From: a virus | Taxonomy: Duplodnaviria; Heunggongvirae; Uroviricota; Caudoviricetes | Length of the DNA stretch: 38,923 nt | Virus record (IMG/VR): IMGVR_UViG_2541047706_000009 | Reading direction: 5' to 3' (one strand) | Shown here: positions 20,106 through 33,091 of the stretch, one piece after another | Numbering within the stretch: position 1 is the first letter of the stretch | How the letters are laid out: the number at the start of each line of letters is the position of its first letter | Notes under the pieces: model-generated | Seen by the model: only the letters and a program-made list of their open reading frames with translations | Database searches by the model: none | What the model was told of the DNA's origin: nothing | Program-made: the position numbers and the translations under genes

Positions 20106-20398
20106 TCCTGTTCACTGGCCTCTTTGGCCATCTTCAAATACTGTTCAGGGCAATGCGCCATAACGCGCTGAAACAGTTCCAGCGCCAGATTGCGTTGCCC
20201 CTCATTAAATGCCATTGCCATAGCGTCCATCGGTGAGATGGCGGAAAACACACGGCCTTTCTCCAGCACCGACCAGACAACGCGACGCCCCTGTTCACTG
20301 CTCATGACAAAGCGAATGTCATCAATTTCACGCTGCGCCATGTCACGTTGCTTACGGGCGTTTTCTTCTTTCAGTTGATCGTCTTCGTAATCTGTCAT
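20102..20398 (-). CDS. Hypothetical protein
   Basis: 98-aa acidic ORF overlapping the portal stop and scaffold start. Confidence 0.4.
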   Translation of the reverse strand: MTDYEDDQLKEENARKQRDMAQREIDDIRFVMSSEQGRRVVWSVLEKGRVFSAISPMDAMAMAFNEGQRNLALELFQRVMAHCPEQYLKMAKEASEQE

Positions 20399-22074
20399 TG
20401 TGATTGCCCACCCTGACCACTAACTGCATTCGCCATAGCTGACAACACACTCGGATCCGAAGTTTTAGCTTCGCTTAGCGTCTTGGCCCCCTGTGCCGCC
20501 GCCATCCCCATCGCCATCATTTGTTGCTGCTGTTGTTGCTGTGCCCGTTGCTGGCGAGCCTGCTCAACCTGTTCCTGCGGAACAATGACGGTTGGAGACA
20601 CTCCGGACATATCAGCGAATGCATCGATCGCCTGATCAACGTTGAGTTTGTCGAGAGCTTCTGGTTTCGCTTGCGCAAGTTGACCAATGAAGTTGACCGT
20701 AGACGCCAGACTGGACAGGCCGATAGACTTCTGCGCCTGAGCCATGACGGAAATGTATTCGACCTTCAGGGGCATACCTTCCATCGCGTCAGGCGGTGGC
20801 GGCAGCATGTTTTTACGCACCATCATCGAGAAAGCGCGGTCAATGAGAGGATTAAGACATTCGTCGTTCAGACGCTCCAGAACCGGCCCCAACATCAGAA
20901 GTTTTTCTTCTTTCATTTCGATCACCGCTTCAACAGGCATCGAGCGGGTATTGATGTTCTGCAACATCATGAACAGATCGACAAAGTAGGCGCTGTTAAT
21001 AATTTGGCGAGTGTCCTGAATGTCTGCTACCAGATCTGCTGTACTGGGGTTAACCAGATAAGCAGGCCTGAAACCATCCTGACCAGTAATCTGATCGATA
21101 TACGTGATGTCGCCAGGAAGAAGGGAGGCGCGCTGATTCTTGAGGGAAGTCGGAGCAACCATCGGCGGATTGGTGGCTTTATCAATCAACTGCGACTTGC
21201 GCTTCTGGAGAAGCTGCAATGCCTTAACAGGTCCAAGCGCCAGCATACCCGGGCATGATGATCCATAAACATCTTCGCCGTTAACTTCCCAGCGCGGAGC
21301 CATAATTGGAAACTCATCGAATCCGGACTCACGCAACAACTTGTCGTTATCGCCACCAACCTCGTAATAAACCGATTTGAATGGCTTGTTCTTGCTATCC
21401 AGCTTCGATGTATCGCGGTCAATGTTCGGGTAAACCGAATGCATCACTTCAATCCACTTCTCGTAGGTGCCGCTTTCCCACATGCTTTTTACGGATTCGC
21501 TGACGTTATTTAGCCCGAACTCCTGAACAAGCTGACGAACAGTCATAGAGAACTTGCGAAAACAGGTGTCCACACTGCCACGAGGTGAGTTAGCCAGGTA
21601 GTAACTGCCTATCGGGAATGGCATTGTGCGAATGATGTCCTCGTCATCCTCCAGCACTGCCATTGCACCAGTGCTGTATGTGCCGAGGCTTCCGTATAAC
21701 TGCGGCAGAGACTGATAGAGATTCGACTTATTGAACATATCGTTCATGCGGTTCTGCACCGCCTCAAGCCACAACTTAACAGGGCCATAATCCATCATTT
21801 CAGGATCTGGCGTAGCCAGGCGAAACCACGGACGCGCGGGGCTTGTGATGCCTGACATCATGCCGCTGGCGAGAGTGCGCGCCGCCATAGTCCCGGTCGA
21901 ATCAATAATGCGTGTATTGCGTCGATCGTTACGGTTGACCTCAGAAGTCAGAAAGCGGGAACCACGCGGGTTGATGTAATCACTCAACTCGCGCCAGTGC
22001 GGCTCGAACGACTGACGCTCGCTTTCAAGTTGTGCGAACTGTTTGTTCAATCGCTCTTTAGTTGTTTCCGCCAT
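20395..22074 (-). CDS. Portal protein
   Basis: 559 aa, first large ORF after the terminase region, followed by scaffold and capsid genes; GGAG RBS. Confidence 0.7.
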   Translation of the reverse strand: MAETTKERLNKQFAQLESERQSFEPHWRELSDYINPRGSRFLTSEVNRNDRRNTRIIDSTGTMAARTLASGMMSGITSPARPWFRLATPDPEMMDYGPVKLWLEAVQNRMNDMFNKSNLYQSLPQLYGSLGTYSTGAMAVLEDDEDIIRTMPFPIGSYYLANSPRGSVDTCFRKFSMTVRQLVQEFGLNNVSESVKSMWESGTYEKWIEVMHSVYPNIDRDTSKLDSKNKPFKSVYYEVGGDNDKLLRESGFDEFPIMAPRWEVNGEDVYGSSCPGMLALGPVKALQLLQKRKSQLIDKATNPPMVAPTSLKNQRASLLPGDITYIDQITGQDGFRPAYLVNPSTADLVADIQDTRQIINSAYFVDLFMMLQNINTRSMPVEAVIEMKEEKLLMLGPVLERLNDECLNPLIDRAFSMMVRKNMLPPPPDAMEGMPLKVEYISVMAQAQKSIGLSSLASTVNFIGQLAQAKPEALDKLNVDQAIDAFADMSGVSPTVIVPQEQVEQARQQRAQQQQQQQMMAMGMAAAQGAKTLSEAKTSDPSVLSAMANAVSGQGGQSQ

Positions 22075-22088
22075 TTCAATGACTCCGG

Positions 22089-22295
22089 TTACTGACCAAG
22101 TAGCGTTTTACCGCTGGTATTAGCGGTTGATGTGTCGCCCTGAGAACCGGTAAGCAGCGTAGAACTACGACCAGCAGCAGCGCGACGGCGACGAGTTTCT
22201 TCGTCGCGGGCATCAACAACGGCGGCATCCTGCTCCTGTGGTGCTGCCTGAACTTCTGGTGTTGCAGGCACTGATGGTGAGCTACCCATGCACAT
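22089..22295 (-). CDS. Small acidic/Arg-rich protein
   Basis: 68-aa ORF with GGAG RBS directly upstream of portal; the overlapping 22076-22315 frame is judged less likely. Confidence 0.3.
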   Translation of the reverse strand: MCMGSSPSVPATPEVQAAPQEQDAAVVDARDEETRRRRAAAGRSSTLLTGSQGDTSTANTSGKTLLGQ

Positions 22296-22363
22296 ATCAA
22301 TGACTCCGTACGCAATTAAATTATTACCAATTTAACCACATATGATTTATTTATCGTAGGAGG

Positions 22364-22401
22364 TTGACATTTAACGCACGAATTATTACCTTTCAGGTAA
22401 C
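22364..22401 (+). promoter_or_regulatory. Promoter-like TTGACA with operator-like palindrome ATTACC-tttca-GGTAAC
   Basis: TTGACA at 22364-22369; palindrome at 22385-22401 overlaps the -10 position. Faces the noncoding region and tRNA. Confidence 0.4.
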
Positions 22402-22419
22402 CAAAAAGTTCATTCCGGT

Positions 22420-22720
22420 TACTAACCTGACTGGCTTGTCGTTAAATTGAACAGGTGGAGTGAGCTTTTATTTTGAGCAGTACGGCGTATGGCACATGCG
22501 CCGATAGCGGTCTGGGTACGTTTAAGGGGCACCCTCCCTTGCTCGGGCAAACGAACCAGGTAGCCGGAATGTGCAAGTCGAGCGGTTTTATTCCGCGCAC
22601 GGGGATTCACCATCCCGGCGATTCGGTGTGACGCCTCGGAAGAGACGAGGTACAACGATGAGAGCATTTATGGATCCGCGACAAAGTGTGGCGCCTTAAC
22701 AGGCTAAGTGCTCTCAGCGT
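22420..22720 (+). ncRNA. Possible structured noncoding RNA
   Basis: About 300 bp with no credible ORF on either strand but several local hairpins, between a promoter-like element and the tRNA. Confidence 0.2.
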
Positions 22721-22721
22721 T

Positions 22722-22798
22722 GTGGCATTAGCTCAGTTGGACAGAGCAACCGCCTTCTAAGCGGTTGGTCGCAGGTTCGAATCCTGCATGCCACGCCA
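22722..22798 (+). tRNA. tRNA-Arg (anticodon UCU), phage-encoded
   Basis: Cloverleaf readable by eye: acceptor GTGGCAT/ATGCCAC, D-arm GCTCAGTTGGACAGAGC, anticodon stem ACCGC/GCGGT with loop CTTCTAA, T-arm GCAGGTTCGAATCCTGC, discriminator G and encoded CCA. Confidence 0.85.
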
Positions 22799-22852
22799 GA
22801 ATCACGCCTAAGGACCGTGATGCCAGAAGTTCCAAGTGCTTGGCGGTGATGG

Positions 22853-22884
22853 TTTCCCTTGAAGGACTATCACCGCCCTTTTTA
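22853..22884 (+). terminator. Hairpin with T-tract downstream of the tRNA
   Basis: ggcggtgat...atcaccgcc stem followed by ctttttac. Confidence 0.4.
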
Positions 22885-22960
22885 CAGCAGGACGCCATTG
22901 CGATGACTTCATGCTGTAAACCCGTACAGCCACGGAAGGCAGAACTCATTGCTTCCAGTT

Positions 22961-22987
22961 CGCCCGGTTCGCCGGGCATTTTTTTGC
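22961..22987 (+). terminator. Rho-independent terminator
   Basis: cgcccgg-ttcg-ccgggc GC-rich hairpin followed by TTTTTTT. Confidence 0.65.
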
Positions 22988-23000
22988 TTGATGACCGCAA

Positions 23001-23017
23001 ATTACCTTAAAGGTATA
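23001..23017. promoter_or_regulatory. Operator-like palindrome ATTACC-ttaaa-GGTATA overlapping a TATAAT element
   Basis: Half-site ATTACC plus imperfect right half; ggTATAATc lies 4 nt before the moron ATG at 23021. Confidence 0.4.
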
Positions 23018-23020
23018 ATC

Positions 23021-23839
23021 ATGAAAAACTTCAAGGTAATTAGCATGTTTGAATCGTTCAAAGAGCTGTTTTTATCTACTGCCAATACTGCCGTGAATCG
23101 AGCCAAAAACCCTGTGCTTGGTGCTTTTGTTATGTCCTGGTGCGCCTTCAACTGGAAATCAATTCTTTATCTATTTTTTAGCAAATCAAACATAATAGAT
23201 AAAATTTCATATATCTCAGATAACAGCACATGGAAAACTGTTATGTTTTATCCATGCTTATCTGTAATTGCTATCTGCTGCCTATTACCATGGGTAAACA
23301 ATATCATTAACGTATGGCAAGCAAAGCCTCTTGATAATAATGACTCAATCGAAAATCACCTGAAGGCAAGAAAAATCCAGCGTGAAACAAGGCTGCAGAG
23401 GTTATTGGCTAAAAAAGATGTTACATACGACAAAGTTAAGACTGGCGCGGAAAAAGACATCCAAGAGATGAAAGAAGAGATTATTCGTTCAAAGAATAGT
23501 ATGGGGGAATTGACTGCCGAGTTGAAAGCTAAAGATGACGAATTGAGATCCGCCAGTGCTCAGTTAGCAGCTCTAAATCATTCATTAAAAGAGATATCGG
23601 AAACTCTTGGAAGAATGAATGAGGCATATAAGACCCTCCAAAATGATTTCGACGAATACAAACTCAAATACCCTGAAAAATCTCAAATAAAAAGCCTTGC
23701 ACTTGGCAACGGCCAAACAATTAGCAACTTTTTGGAGCAACACAACTTATCCGGATTAAAATCTGGTAAGCCAAACGTTTTTAATAACTTTGGTGTTCTA
23801 TCTGGATTATCAGGTTTCGAGGATAAAAATAAAGACTAA
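23021..23839 (+). CDS. AT-rich moron: membrane-anchored coiled-coil protein
   Basis: 273 aa from ATG 23021 (ORF-track start 22949 trimmed; 22991 also possible). Two N-terminal TM segments then a K/E-rich coiled coil. Visibly lower GC than flanking genes and opposite in strand to the late operon. Confidence 0.6.
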   Translation: MKNFKVISMFESFKELFLSTANTAVNRAKNPVLGAFVMSWCAFNWKSILYLFFSKSNIIDKISYISDNSTWKTVMFYPCLSVIAICCLLPWVNNIINVWQAKPLDNNDSIENHLKARKIQRETRLQRLLAKKDVTYDKVKTGAEKDIQEMKEEIIRSKNSMGELTAELKAKDDELRSASAQLAALNHSLKEISETLGRMNEAYKTLQNDFDEYKLKYPEKSQIKSLALGNGQTISNFLEQHNLSGLKSGKPNVFNNFGVLSGLSGFEDKNKD

Positions 23840-25311
23840 GCATATGGATCGTACTCGGTAAGCGCCTTGCCTTGCTGGTTCTGCTGCCCGGGAAGTCGCA
23901 GGCGCTTTGACACCGGGAAAGCAAACGTCAGCAGTAGCGCATCGCCTTTACCAGGCGAACGCCCAAGTCGTTCTTTGATATCTTCCTTCGGTTCGATAAC
24001 GATTTTACCGTCCACGCGAACTTTGTACTCTGCCGCCGACAGATCGTCCGCTGTTTCCTGGTCATCCAGCATCCCGCCCAACCTCAGCCATGTCTTGCAT
24101 GAGTTGAACATCTCCCCACGCTTGTTAAGCATCTGCGGGTCAGTGGACGCACCGCCGAACGGAACAAGTTGCCATGTACGTCCCCAGCCATCACCGATTG
24201 ACTTCAGACCAGTTCCGTAACCGAAGTCGATGAACACTGCGTCAGCCTGGTACTGGTCTTCAAAGTCAGCGATACGCTTCGCCATAATCAGATCGTCGGT
24301 GGTCTTGTTACCAGTCCATAGCACCTTACTGTGCAGCCCCTGCCGCAGGTATATCACAGCGTCATCAACGCCGGAGTATGCCGGGTCAACGCCGATTATC
24401 ACCGGAGCATGTGCAACCTGCGCAGCGGTTACCACCCGTTTCATTGCCTCGTCAGTAAGGCCGGTAGGGATAAACTGCAATTCAGATGCATCCGGGAATA
24501 TGCCGCGCACACGGATTTTAACGAAGTCGCTGTCTTCCCCGTAGTCATCAACCCATTTCTGCAACTGCTGTTTGTTAGTGCCTTCCACCGTCCGGCTGTC
24601 AATCTGCGCAGTTTTCCAGCGGTGTTTATATTTGCGGAAACATTCGCGGAAACGCCCGGTGTTACGTGTAGGGTTTCCGAATGCCACCCAGATAATCTCA
24701 GTGTCTTCGTCCGTCAGCGCACCCTCTGCTACCTCCCACACCAGATCGGCAATGTTGGATGCTTCGTCGAATACCACGATGATGCGTTTGCGCTCGTTGT
24801 GTAGTCCGGCGAATGCCTCAGTGTTGTGCTCAGACCAGGGGATTGCGTCAGCTCGCCACCGCTTGTCGTGCCCAGGGTCATTGCTGTACATCGCGGTAGC
24901 GGTACAGGTAAACCAGTCTTTCGTGATAGCAAGGTTCGACCACTTGATAATTTCCGGCCAGGTCTTCGTTCGTAGCTGGTTGTCGGTGTTGGCGGTCACC
25001 ACGACCTTACAATCCTCGCAAGTGGACATGCCCCAGTTGATCAGCATTGAGATGAATGCGGATTTACCAATACCGTGACCAGAAGCACGTGCCAGCATAA
25101 GCGGCTGATATCGCGTCTCTGGATTCTGCAGGTGATCACGTATCTCTCGGAACGCATCGGCCTGCCACTGACGTGGACCGGTGGCATGTGCCAGTTCAGT
25201 ACCCTCTTCCCCCCACGGGAACGCATAGAGGGCATAGCCAAGCGGATCGTGAGTGAACCCTGCAATATCCTCGATTAACTGCTCTTCAGGAGATAACGCT
25301 GTATCTGTCAC
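23836..25311 (-). CDS. Terminase large subunit
   Basis: 491 aa; Walker-A-like ASGHGIGKS near the N-terminus and acidic nuclease-like C-terminal half; start overlaps the small-subunit stop. Confidence 0.8.
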   Translation of the reverse strand: MTDTALSPEEQLIEDIAGFTHDPLGYALYAFPWGEEGTELAHATGPRQWQADAFREIRDHLQNPETRYQPLMLARASGHGIGKSAFISMLINWGMSTCEDCKVVVTANTDNQLRTKTWPEIIKWSNLAITKDWFTCTATAMYSNDPGHDKRWRADAIPWSEHNTEAFAGLHNERKRIIVVFDEASNIADLVWEVAEGALTDEDTEIIWVAFGNPTRNTGRFRECFRKYKHRWKTAQIDSRTVEGTNKQQLQKWVDDYGEDSDFVKIRVRGIFPDASELQFIPTGLTDEAMKRVVTAAQVAHAPVIIGVDPAYSGVDDAVIYLRQGLHSKVLWTGNKTTDDLIMAKRIADFEDQYQADAVFIDFGYGTGLKSIGDGWGRTWQLVPFGGASTDPQMLNKRGEMFNSCKTWLRLGGMLDDQETADDLSAAEYKVRVDGKIVIEPKEDIKERLGRSPGKGDALLLTFAFPVSKRLRLPGQQNQQGKALTEYDPYA

Positions 25312-25904
25312 TGATTGCCATCCTGACGTTCTTTCAGTCTCTTCCTGGCTGCCGCTATGCGATCAGCAATTGTCACATTCACATTAACATCCAGGCGTTC
25401 TTTGAATGCGTTGACGTCGACGTGCTTACCAATCAGTTCGAGGTTCTTCACCTTGTCAGGCCATTTAATTTTTTTGAGGATTGTCTCTATCGAATCCTCG
25501 TTCATGTTCATGATGGTCGATGACAGATCAAAGCCACTAAGCGTAGTGCGCCAGATTTTCGGCCACTCACGGATTGGTTTAAGGCTCCCATCGTCGTTGA
25601 GGATATCGATCACGTCCATCTGGTCGATCTCCACCAGGCGCATGAGAACGTAATCAGCACTGACGCGCATTCGTTTGTTGCGCTCCTCCATCAACTCGGC
25701 AATCCGTTTTTGAATGCGTTCATCGCGCATCATGACACTGGCTTTAACTGCCGCTGTATTTGGGGAGAATCCTGCGTTAATCGCTGCCTGAGTCTGGTTT
25801 TCAGGCGTTTTGATGTATGACTGGCAATAAGCCTCCTGCATTGCTGTTAGTGGCTTAAATTGCGTTGATTTGCGTTTATAGGTTTTAGGTTCAGCAGGCA
25901 TCAT
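25308..25904 (-). CDS. Terminase small subunit
   Basis: About 198 aa from ATGATG at 25904 with GGTGG RBS (ORF-track start 25982 trimmed because a terminator lies inside the extension). Confidence 0.6.
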   Translation of the reverse strand: MMPAEPKTYKRKSTQFKPLTAMQEAYCQSYIKTPENQTQAAINAGFSPNTAAVKASVMMRDERIQKRIAELMEERNKRMRVSADYVLMRLVEIDQMDVIDILNDDGSLKPIREWPKIWRTTLSGFDLSSTIMNMNEDSIETILKKIKWPDKVKNLELIGKHVDVNAFKERLDVNVNVTIADRIAAARKRLKERQDGNQ

Positions 25905-25911
25905 AACCACC

Positions 25912-25943
25912 GTGGTAATAGTTACCGTTGTGGTAATAGTACC
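25912..25943. repeat. Tandem repeat GTGGTAATAGT(T)ACC x2 in the terminase leader
   Basis: Two adjacent copies separated by gtt; each holds GGTAAT and TACC half-site-like elements. Confidence 0.4.
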
Positions 25944-25946
25944 ATG

Positions 25947-25974
25947 CAAAATAAAGCCGCCATAGTTGGCGGCA
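25947..25974 (-). terminator. Rho-independent terminator upstream of the late operon
   Basis: gccgcc-aactat-ggcggc hairpin followed on the minus strand by tttatttt; about 45 nt upstream of the terminase small-subunit start. Confidence 0.6.
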
Positions 25975-26014
25975 GTATTCAAAACACATCAAATTCATCA
26001 TGCATAATCTACTC

Positions 26015-32506: not shown

Positions 32507-33091
32507 ATGAAAAGTATCCAGGACGTCCGCAGGCAAAATCTCAACGACTTGATCGACCGTGAATGCAATGGTGTTCAGACGCGGATGGCAGAAAAACTTG
32601 GAACTCAGGCAAATCTGGTAAACCGCTGGGCTCTTGGCAAGAAGGTTATCGGCGACCAGGTTGCACGAAAAATTGAAGCTGCCGCCAATAAACCCCGTAA
32701 CTGGCTTGATATTGATCGTTCGCTTTCTCAGGAGGGTTTTCAGCCTGTCGGCCCGAGCGATATAGGTCAGCTGGCGGCTCACAACCTGGAACGCTGGATG
32801 AGCGAAAGCCGCGACCTTTCAACACAGGGAAAACTTCACCGCGCATCCGGCGTCGCCCAGGTGACAATCAGCCGCCTGTTAAACAATGAGGTCAGCGTTT
32901 CCATTTCCACCCTGGAGAATGTTGCATCCGCATTCGGGCGTCACGGCTATGAATTACTGATTCACCCGCACGACCCTGCGACCATCAACTATGATCGCTC
33001 GCGCTACGCATTGTTACCCGAAACCGAGAAAGCAAAGATCGAAAGTTACATTGAATTTGTCATCAACCAGAACGAAAAAAACAAACAATAA
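32507..33091 (+). CDS. Putative prophage repressor, tandem HTH, no S24 peptidase domain
   Basis: 194 aa with two helix-turn-helix-like segments (..VQTRMAEKLGTQANLVNRWALGKK.. and ..ASGVAQVTISRLLNNEVSVSISTLENVASAFG..); no Ala-Gly/Ser-Lys autocleavage signature. Flanked by operator clusters and followed by a terminator. Confidence 0.55.
   Translation: MKSIQDVRRQNLNDLIDRECNGVQTRMAEKLGTQANLVNRWALGKKVIGDQVARKIEAAANKPRNWLDIDRSLSQEGFQPVGPSDIGQLAAHNLERWMSESRDLSTQGKLHRASGVAQVTISRLLNNEVSVSISTLENVASAFGRHGYELLIHPHDPATINYDRSRYALLPETEKAKIESYIEFVINQNEKNKQ

Follow-up and report, generated by a model that had tools for sequence, protein, structure and literature searches.

A predicted two-part membrane protein with an exchangeable coiled-coil tip in a recurrent cargo slot beside the terminase of Uetakevirus prophages

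Cargo slots of temperate phages have proved to be sources of genes for defence, exclusion, and counter-defence, and the slot considered here belongs to a common type of prophage in Escherichia coli and Salmonella. It lies in a stretch of 38,923 nucleotides (nt), virus record IMGVR_UViG_2541047706_000009, which was analysed as a whole (hereafter "the window", to which all unqualified positions refer) and which represents a phiV10/epsilon15-like (Uetakevirus) prophage. Between the genes for the portal and the terminase, on the strand opposite to theirs, this window carries a single gene, here called the cargo gene, within a discrete cassette at 22986-23839. Phage-hotspot cargo is well known as a kind, but the family to which this gene belongs is uncharacterised, and in the libraries that we searched it is known only as phrog_4780. 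We describe the boundaries of the cassette, the predicted architecture of its product, in which a conserved membrane module is joined to an exchangeable coiled-coil tip, and a promoter-like site that bears a candidate repressor operator.

The left boundary of the slot is a strong intrinsic terminator on the plus strand, GCCCGGTTCGCCGGGC (stem 22962-22977), followed by an A and seven Ts and occupying 22962-22985, and the equivalent hairpin in epsilon15 is annotated as a rho-independent terminator. A further terminator-like hairpin, with 14 pairs followed by CTTTTT, lies upstream on the same strand (22842-22877). The right boundary is the stop codon of the gene for the terminase large subunit, TerL (491 amino acids (aa), minus strand, 23836-25311), which is annotated as "terminase" in RefSeq relatives. 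The region 22076-22985 is 98% identical to phiV10, the O157 typing phages 9 and 10, ZX5, TL-2011b, and other Uetakevirus genomes, and similarity between the window and these relatives ends exactly with the last T of the terminator (22985) and returns at about 23834, at the TerL stop. Measured over the 188 nt ending at 22985, the identity to slot variants that carry a Gp49 gene, that are empty, or that carry a gene for a 140-aa protein is 97.9-98.9%. The segment 22940-23900 is also found, 100% identical, in four strains, among them E. coli BE311, in a prophage adjoining guaA. The original prediction, a reading of the window without database searches, had placed a gene insulated by a strong upstream terminator between terminase and portal; both points hold, with the addition that a tRNA-Arg(UCU) gene and a 68-aa open reading frame (ORF) share that interval.

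The cassette is also set apart by its composition, as had been proposed. Sliding GC content is 0.34-0.40 across 23000-23900, compared with 0.53-0.56 on either side. The cargo ORF has a GC content of 0.369 and a GC content at third codon positions (GC3) of 0.374, and the corresponding values for the genes of TerL, the terminase small subunit (TerS), the portal, and the major capsid protein are 0.47-0.54 and 0.52-0.61. Because GC3 is low too, the low GC content is not merely an amino-acid bias of a protein rich in K, E, N, and I. Five of its eight arginine codons are AGA or AGG, which account for 0-13% of arginine codons in the genes of TerL, TerS, portal, and major capsid protein and for 29% in that of the putative tailspike. 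This AGA-rich gene is located directly downstream of the tRNA-Arg(UCU), which decodes AGA.

The cargo protein is registered in RefSeq as WP_000787773.1, annotated from an ATG at 23021 with a length of 272 aa. This start has to be abandoned: the predicted -10 element ends 2 nt upstream, so that the codon would be absent from a transcript of the predicted promoter; every homologue begins at the in-frame ATG at 23045 (MLESLKEY...); a related allele (L002) carries AGA in place of the codon; and in the match to phrog_4780 (E=3.2e-137, 457.6 bits, residues 9-272 of the 272-aa form against profile positions 1-267 of 275), the first profile position pairs with residue 9. The gene is therefore the plus-strand ORF at 23045-23839, encoding 264 aa, and a Shine-Dalgarno-like AAGG lies 8 nt 5' of its ATG (23033-23036). 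At the other end, its stop codon (23837-23839) overlaps that of TerL (23836-23838), which confirms the convergence of the two genes. We found no plus-strand terminator from the cargo stop to TerL, the only candidate being a weak 5-pair hairpin inside TerL (23957-23973). With overlapping stops and no intervening terminator, transcripts of the cargo gene must run antisense into TerL. In terms of the features by which a "moron" in the Hendrix/Juhala sense is recognized, the cassette is variably present, with sharp boundaries between conserved flanks, and differs in composition from the surrounding genome; as for a promoter and terminator of its own, a conserved promoter-like site is seen and there is no terminator before TerL.

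The slot, bounded by the terminator past the tRNA-Arg(UCU) and by the TerL stop, is polymorphic among close relatives. In phiV10, typing phage 9, epsilon15, and one further locus (L010), it holds a gene for a 118-123-aa protein of the Gp49/Sf6 gene 66 family (PF13876), which lies on the same strand as the cargo gene and within the same bounds; its product is an unrelated soluble protein, and its gene starts directly past the T-run of the terminator, without a promoter or operator of its own. Other occupants are a gene for a 140-aa soluble protein (L011, 3300-3722) and, in Salmonella phage SPN9TCW_003 (L022, 3326-3832), a gene for a 168-aa membrane protein, which has a single hydrophobic segment and a C-terminal part that is charged and alpha-helical; neither protein has a match in Pfam. 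The "empty" form of the slot holds a remnant of 128 nt (L012, 3288-3416), consisting of a mini-ORF of eight codons (MKYEFDGF) and a terminator, CAGCCAGCCGATGAGCTGGCTTTGTTTT. The identical 128-nt remnant precedes one type of cargo cassette, the P0109 type (L002, 5802-5930), which suggests that repeated insertions have stacked or replaced the cassettes.

In E. coli, the slot is occupied by three or more lineages of the cargo family: the window type; the P0109 type (L002-L005), whose 246-aa product is 68% identical to the window type in its N-terminal part and unrelated past residue ~160; and the L013 type, whose 296-aa product is ~30% identical to the window protein and matches the family profile with E=5e-50. 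In addition, a 294-aa relative (P0157), 25-30% identical, occupies this slot in a distant epsilon15-like prophage without the tRNA. The frequencies of these forms were estimated by blastn over 5426 complete E. coli genomes, the counts being lower bounds. The tRNA-bearing backbone of the slot was found in about 502 genomes, the window-type N-terminal module in 62 (full length in 37), the L013 type in 31, the P0109 type at high identity in five, and the full Gp49 cassette in 143. The cargo gene is absent from phiV10, typing phages 9 and 10, ZX5, TL-2011b, and epsilon15. In other words, the slot is a recurrent cargo site and the cargo gene a recurrent occupant, neither universal nor structural. 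The view of an accessory gene without a core function, variably present among related prophages rather than kept in all of them as a structural component, is thus upheld, and that of a one-off insertion is not.

Two 41,027-bp records from duck isolates of E. coli, NZ_CP079771.1 and NZ_CP079768.1 (strains HL15 and SF10), are registered as plasmids and carry the cargo gene beside a terminase gene. They are phage-sized, and their sequence is also present in the chromosome records of the two strains; they are probably excised circular Uetakevirus genomes and not plasmids.

For the cargo protein, the original prediction was of two transmembrane (TM) segments and a coiled coil of roughly 170 aa. The first part stands, with TM1 marginal in the window protein (Kyte-Doolittle hydrophobicity 1.23, against 2.15 for the strong TM2), and the second is modified, since the helix past TM2 extends for ~117 residues and is followed by a low-confidence tail of ~55 residues. 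An AlphaFold model of aa 1-170, built with a diverse alignment of 41 sequences, has a mean predicted local distance difference test score (pLDDT) of 90, with helices at residues 2-20, 23-35, 37-45, 50-60, and 63-169. Together with the alignment, it delimits a conserved membrane module (23048-23317) with a predicted N-terminal amphipathic helix (aa 2-20), TM1 (aa 23-45), a loop helix (aa 50-60), and TM2 (aa ~63-91), and in the model TM1 is kinked at N36-W37. These two residues are invariant in 41 members that are 21-62% identical to the window protein, and R19, G26, W32, P70, and P82 are conserved in at least 90% of them. A juxtamembrane stalk (aa 92-160; 23318-23524) is predicted to extend the helix of TM2 directly and hardly varies among the enterobacterial alleles: QAKPLDNNDSIEN...TRLQRL.AK.DVTY..VKTGAEKDIQ.MKE.I..S...MGELT. 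The remainder (23525-23836) comprises a hypervariable distal coiled coil, to about aa 208, and the tail (aa ~209-264), both of which are swapped between alleles; here the full-length model is poor (pLDDT 67), with the helix reaching about residue 208 and disorder beyond. Across 134 members, the two hydrophobic segments average a Kyte-Doolittle value of ~1.5, and the part before TM1, the loop, and the part past TM2 have net charges of +1.2, -1.0, and +2.2, respectively. These hydrophobicity and charge statistics indicate a two-TM hairpin with both termini inside (N-in/C-in) and a cytoplasmic stalk.

The contrast between the two parts of the protein is sharp. Among 37 enterobacterial members (666 pairs), the first 160 residues have a median pairwise identity of 76% (minimum 59%) and the remainder a median of 10%; in 342 of these pairs, the N-terminal part is at least 75% identical and the C-terminal part less than 25%. 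Such a pattern indicates that the distal part is replaced as a domain at a fixed junction (...MGELTAE|) and does not simply diverge by gradual drift.

A search of 5.8 billion proteins returned 177 matches, all of them "hypothetical", from Escherichia, Salmonella, Klebsiella, Enterobacter, Citrobacter, Cronobacter, and others. When a family profile of the N-terminal 165 residues was run exhaustively against 1.84 billion representatives of 50%-identity clusters, E-value cut-offs of 1e-3, 1e-10, and 1e-30 retained 2387, 373, and 19 matches, respectively, nearly all of them 200-350 aa long with the module at the N-terminus. In every context the gene stands alone, in an accessory position and on the strand opposite to the surrounding phage operon. 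In the Klebsiella lambdoid phages L006, KO-TP1, and ST11-VIM1phi8.2, it lies between the replication genes and ninB; other contexts are a 111-kb tailed phage-plasmid, the variable region of Vibrio inoviruses, and a Cronobacter prophage remnant. The L006 copy carries along ~120 nt of Uetakevirus backbone, from the terminator region past the tRNA (beginning with the hairpin of 22842-22877 and reaching the second terminator), together with the same promoter, and this cassette was therefore exported from a Uetakevirus. An N-terminal fragment of 102 aa, truncated by IS1 (L024, 6001-6309), is found on about 24 conjugative IncFIB plasmids of Klebsiella, directly downstream of a DUF1778/GNAT (TacAT-like) toxin-antitoxin pair.

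Upstream of the gene, a sigma-70-like promoter is predicted on the plus strand at 22991-23019, with a -35 element ATGACC (22991-22996), a spacer of 17 nt, and the -10 element TATAAT (23014-23019) that had been pointed out previously; transcription would start near 23026. This promoter matches 10 of the 12 consensus positions and is the best of four promoter-like hits in 22000-24200. As 2.8 such hits are expected, it is weak evidence when taken alone. It is retained in homologous cassettes, as ATGACC...TAGAAT in L002 and GATGAC...TATAAT in L006, with counterparts GATGACC...TACAAT in L007 and GTGACT...TAATAT in L013.

Over the spacer and the -10 element lies a palindrome, TTACCTTAAAGGTAT (23002-23016), which agrees with TTACC-N5-GGTAA at nine of ten positions. 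What had been read as an operator-like half-site is therefore operator-like indeed, yet not a half-site but a nearly complete palindrome. We identify the motif as a putative operator from the GenBank record of epsilon15 and from homology to the Rep repressor. In the epsilon15 record, 16-17-bp protein_bind features labelled "repressor / lysogeny" have the core TTACC-N5-GGTAA, and this core motif occurs 15 times in that genome, against 0.69 expected, coinciding with the annotated repressor features. In the window, a helix-turn-helix protein of 194 aa (32507-33091) is a full-length homologue of SPC32H Rep (PDB 5d50, E=4.9e-41). The window contains 13 sites with at most one mismatch, against 0.58 expected and a maximum of three in 100 shuffled sequences, and 12 of the 13 occupy regulatory intergenic positions that mirror those of epsilon15. 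These 12 sites lie around and past the repressor gene (32052, 32389, 32437, 33149, and 33211), past the replication genes (30020 and 30082), upstream of TerS (25904 and 25922), upstream of the tailspike gene (5445), at the cargo promoter (23002), and upstream of the gp3-like ORF, where a perfect site, TTACCTTTCAGGTAA (22386-22400), corresponds in position to a site that is annotated in epsilon15 as a repressor site, upstream of gp3 and portal.

The palindrome at the cargo promoter recurs in other alleles. The P0109 allele (L002) keeps it (…GGTAG), and in the L013 cassette, with a protein identity of only ~30%, a perfect site, TTACCTTATGGGTAA, overlies the -10 element; the operator-like site is thus common to three alleles that are only 30-68% identical. 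We reject the view of the palindrome as a chance by-product of the -10 element in the light of the genome-wide enrichment and of the perfect site of L013. The lambdoid copy in L006 also keeps the palindrome, and no second such site is present in the 12.7 kb of that locus that we examined; we read it there as a carried-over remnant. From the 13 enriched sites, the Rep homologue encoded in the same genome, and the conservation of the site among alleles, we infer that the cassette belongs to an epsilon15/SPC32H-type Rep regulon. The cargo gene is then probably switched on together with the lytic genes, and the position of the site over the -10 element argues against strong expression in the lysogen. 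TTACC-N5-GGTAA sites are also observed at essentially every operon start of the window, often paired 18 or 62 bp apart, an arrangement suggesting that Rep controls all lytic promoters directly through distributed operators, as C1 does in P1, and not through one early switch.

Library searches bear out the statement that the protein resembles no characterised family. Scans of Pfam (E<=0.1) and NCBIfam (E<=1) with the cargo protein, and of the same libraries with ten distant homologues (E<=0.01), yielded no exclusion family, SieB (PF14163) included, and Pfam, NCBIfam, PADLOC, and PDB contained no match to the membrane module. With the full protein, PADLOC-DB v2 returned only SMC-like coiled-coil regions (DndD, PbeC, LmuB, and JetC; best E=2.2e-5, residues 107-260), with the N-terminal 170 aa of the window protein it returned none, and with the N-terminal modules of 41 diverse members it returned only three scattered single-member hits. 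Library hits to SMC, DndD, LmuB, and HlyD were dismissed as coiled-coil noise. A sequence-profile search of PDB with the N-terminal module gave nothing under E=0.38, a Foldseek search of BFVD with the full-length model gave nothing under E=0.3 (the only holin fold hit having E=2.3), and further fold searches gave no significant match. In PHROGs, the protein falls only into families of unknown function: it is a direct member of phrog_4780, with phrog_13369 and phrog_35327 as related families, and as phrog_4780 has no functional annotation, membership does not explain a mechanism.

Several known systems nevertheless offer points of comparison. SieA and SieB of P22, SieB and RexB of lambda, Imm of T4, and gp15 of HK97 are single small-to-medium inner-membrane proteins and non-essential phage cargo, and genes of this type commonly show an AT-rich composition, a separate promoter, and a patchy occurrence in related phages. 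The cargo protein matches none of them in sequence or profile, and they have no cytoplasmic helix of more than 100 residues that bears a swappable distal module. The Sie and Rex proteins of P22 and lambda are expressed in the lysogen, whereas the cargo promoter bears a repressor operator-like site; Imm of T4 is expressed in lytic infection and parallels the predicted Rep-controlled timing of the cargo gene. Class II holins and pinholins are likewise phage-encoded, with a two-TM, N-in/C-in topology, a charged cytoplasmic C-terminus, and lytic expression like that predicted here, but they are about 70-150 aa long and encoded beside the endolysin, while the cargo protein has 264 aa, is encoded between TerL and portal, and is missing from relatives whose lysis is normal; the topology is compatible, and the size and location are not. 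Two-TM cation channels of the NaK/KcsA layout share with the module the order of elements (interfacial helix, TM1, loop helix, TM2, and C-terminal helical bundle), and NaK entries recur among the Foldseek hits, all of them non-significant (E 3-7, TM-score 0.15-0.3). The module has no selectivity-filter sequence, unlike these channels, and the likeness serves as a lead only.

Because homology gives no function, the mechanism has to be sought in anatomy and context. Our tentative preference, which may well prove wrong, is that the cassette is a repressor-controlled inner-membrane module for competition among phages, of the exclusion or abortive type, which acts in the active phase of the phage itself. 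The protein would be a hairpin of the inner membrane, with the N-in/C-in orientation, and would oligomerise through its cytoplasmic coiled-coil stalk. The prophage repressor would hold the promoter low or off in the lysogen, and the gene would fire with the lytic regulon at infection or induction; later, as it converges on the late operon with no terminator in between, late transcription from TerS and TerL would probably overrun it. Its role would be in competition with other phages or mobile genetic elements at the inner membrane, either by superinfection exclusion or by an abortive, membrane-perturbing response; the conserved membrane module would act as effector, and recognition would be set by the swappable part, namely the distal coiled coil and the tail. 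A competition device fits best, in our opinion, with the combination of a two-TM module with a polar residue, an oligomerising stalk, an exchangeable tip, carriage as a lone gene, a shared slot, and repressor wiring. Distribution in accessory positions of unrelated temperate elements is typical of phage exclusion and defence cargo, and the swapping of the distal domain at a fixed junction resembles the exchange of specificity domains.

Several points weigh against this proposal. If Rep shuts the promoter in lysogens, the protein cannot protect the resting lysogen, unlike classical prophage defence. At the cargo promoter there is only one operator, an imperfect one, in contrast to the pairs 18 or 62 bp apart in the strongest control regions, and the relative in the distant epsilon15-like prophage (L018) has a half-site only. 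Promoter and operator are themselves predictions, as are topology and oligomerisation. Weak constraint on a coiled coil might by itself account for the hypervariable C-terminus. A literature search found no account of the cargo gene and no experimental or expression data. A broader version of the proposal, which we consider doubtful, would make the whole family widespread single-gene membrane sensor-effectors of temperate phages, phage-plasmids, and inoviruses, a class not recognised before, with a channel-like module, oligomerised by the stalk, and a tip that recognises a component of the competing phage and so triggers or targets the protein; in Uetakeviruses, the cassette would be tied directly to the network of Rep operators and would act in the lytic window of the phage itself, not in the resting lysogen.

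The same observations can be read in other ways. The Rep-operator-bearing promoter, which would place the gene in the lytic regulon, could also mean that the protein assists the lytic cycle of its own phage at the membrane, in a non-essential way, as a holin-like modulator of lysis timing or as a membrane anchor for replication, assembly, or DNA ejection. Its topology with a charged cytoplasmic C-terminus is like that of class II holins, and the family has a long-standing tie to the slot in distant epsilon15-like phages. We regard a lytic helper as rather unlikely nonetheless: fully functional relatives such as phiV10 and epsilon15 are among the many that do without the gene, which lies outside the lysis cassette, and inoviruses and lambdoid phages with other lytic machinery carry the family as well; moreover, 264 aa far exceeds the size of a holin, and a swappable C-terminus is unexpected in a housekeeping helper. 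That hypervariable, modular distal domain would suit an early counter-defence or host-takeover protein that neutralises a variable membrane-associated defence or envelope function of a host or prophage, with a C-terminus that varies along with the targets. The gene is predicted to be expressed early, under the control of Rep, and the accessory slot by the packaging genes is also home to other uncharacterised cargo (the Gp49/Sf6-66 family). No similarity to known anti-defence proteins was seen, however, and the copies in lambdoid prophages lie on the opposite strand, have a promoter to themselves, and lack a cognate operator in the rest of the locus, which suggests expression from a resident prophage and not during attack; a counter-defence role is accordingly one that we would call unlikely.

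Expression from a resident prophage would agree with a classical factor of lysogenic conversion or host fitness, which alters envelope physiology such as surface structures or stress tolerance and which was one of the functions originally suggested. The layout is that of a moron (opposite strand, own promoter, and AT-rich composition), serotype conversion is a known trait of the epsilon15-like phages, which have small membrane proteins, as annotated in the epsilon15 record, and leaky expression through a single imperfect operator is conceivable. A constitutive conversion gene is a poor fit, on the other hand, with an operator-like site over the -10 element that is conserved across alleles and perfect in L013; in addition, the coiled coil is predicted to be cytoplasmic and not surface-exposed, and the library scans gave no link to virulence or surface-modification families, so that the chances of this explanation appear slim. 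Finally, the protein might be incidental, with the cassette acting mainly in cis as a convergent promoter that damps TerL and the late operon, or being neutral or selfish cargo. Overlapping stops, with no terminator between the genes and hence antisense transcripts into TerL, speak for a cis-acting cassette. Against it, the strong purifying selection on the N-terminal module (76% median amino-acid identity at ~67% nucleotide identity), the residues that are invariant across a family of hundreds of clusters, and the presence of the same gene in contexts without a convergent terminase make an incidental protein highly improbable.

The two-part design, with a conserved membrane module and a swappable coiled-coil tip, leads to the prediction that specificity would follow the tip. 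If the operator is functional, the cassette would exemplify accessory cargo whose timing is set by the lytic programme and not by lysogeny. A promoter that bears a repressor operator is unusual for a moron, and lytic timing has rarely been considered for such genes, as morons are assumed to be expressed in the lysogen.

The backbone around the slot is that of the Uetakevirus group. The minus strand carries TerS (25308-25982, PF03592) next to TerL, and on the other side of the slot are the 68-aa ORF (22089-22295, phrog_831) and the portal gene (20395-22074, PF12236). The tRNA-Arg(UCU) gene (plus strand, 22722-22798) was identified by ARAGORN and by Rfam RF00005 (73.3 bits) and is annotated in phiV10-like records; it is a backbone feature upstream of the slot, kept in relatives irrespective of the cargo. 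An Rfam scan of 22250-23060 gave no match except this tRNA.

Upstream of the tRNA-Arg gene, a non-coding stretch of ~425 nt (22296-22721, plus strand) is 98% conserved in phiV10-like phages. It has no match to an Rfam family, its predicted folding is mildly better than that of shuffled sequences (z = -1.97), and the epsilon15 annotation places an RNase III site in the equivalent region. A core of 163 nt (22482-22644) is matched at 81% in about 270 records of E. coli plasmids, ~95-113 kb in size, which are P1-like and in which the match is placed directly past a tRNA-Ile and before dnaB/ban. The stretch may be a shared tRNA-flanking processing element or a non-coding RNA.

Past the tailspike gene, the left end of the window carries two further plus-strand accessory genes, at 1-516 and 532-1071. 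One of the pair encodes a glycine-zipper two-TM/TraT-like protein (PF05433, E=5e-8; TraT, E=2e-6, below the cut-off) and the other a DUF5384 protein (E=7.5e-62), and both are likely to be further envelope-related cargo.

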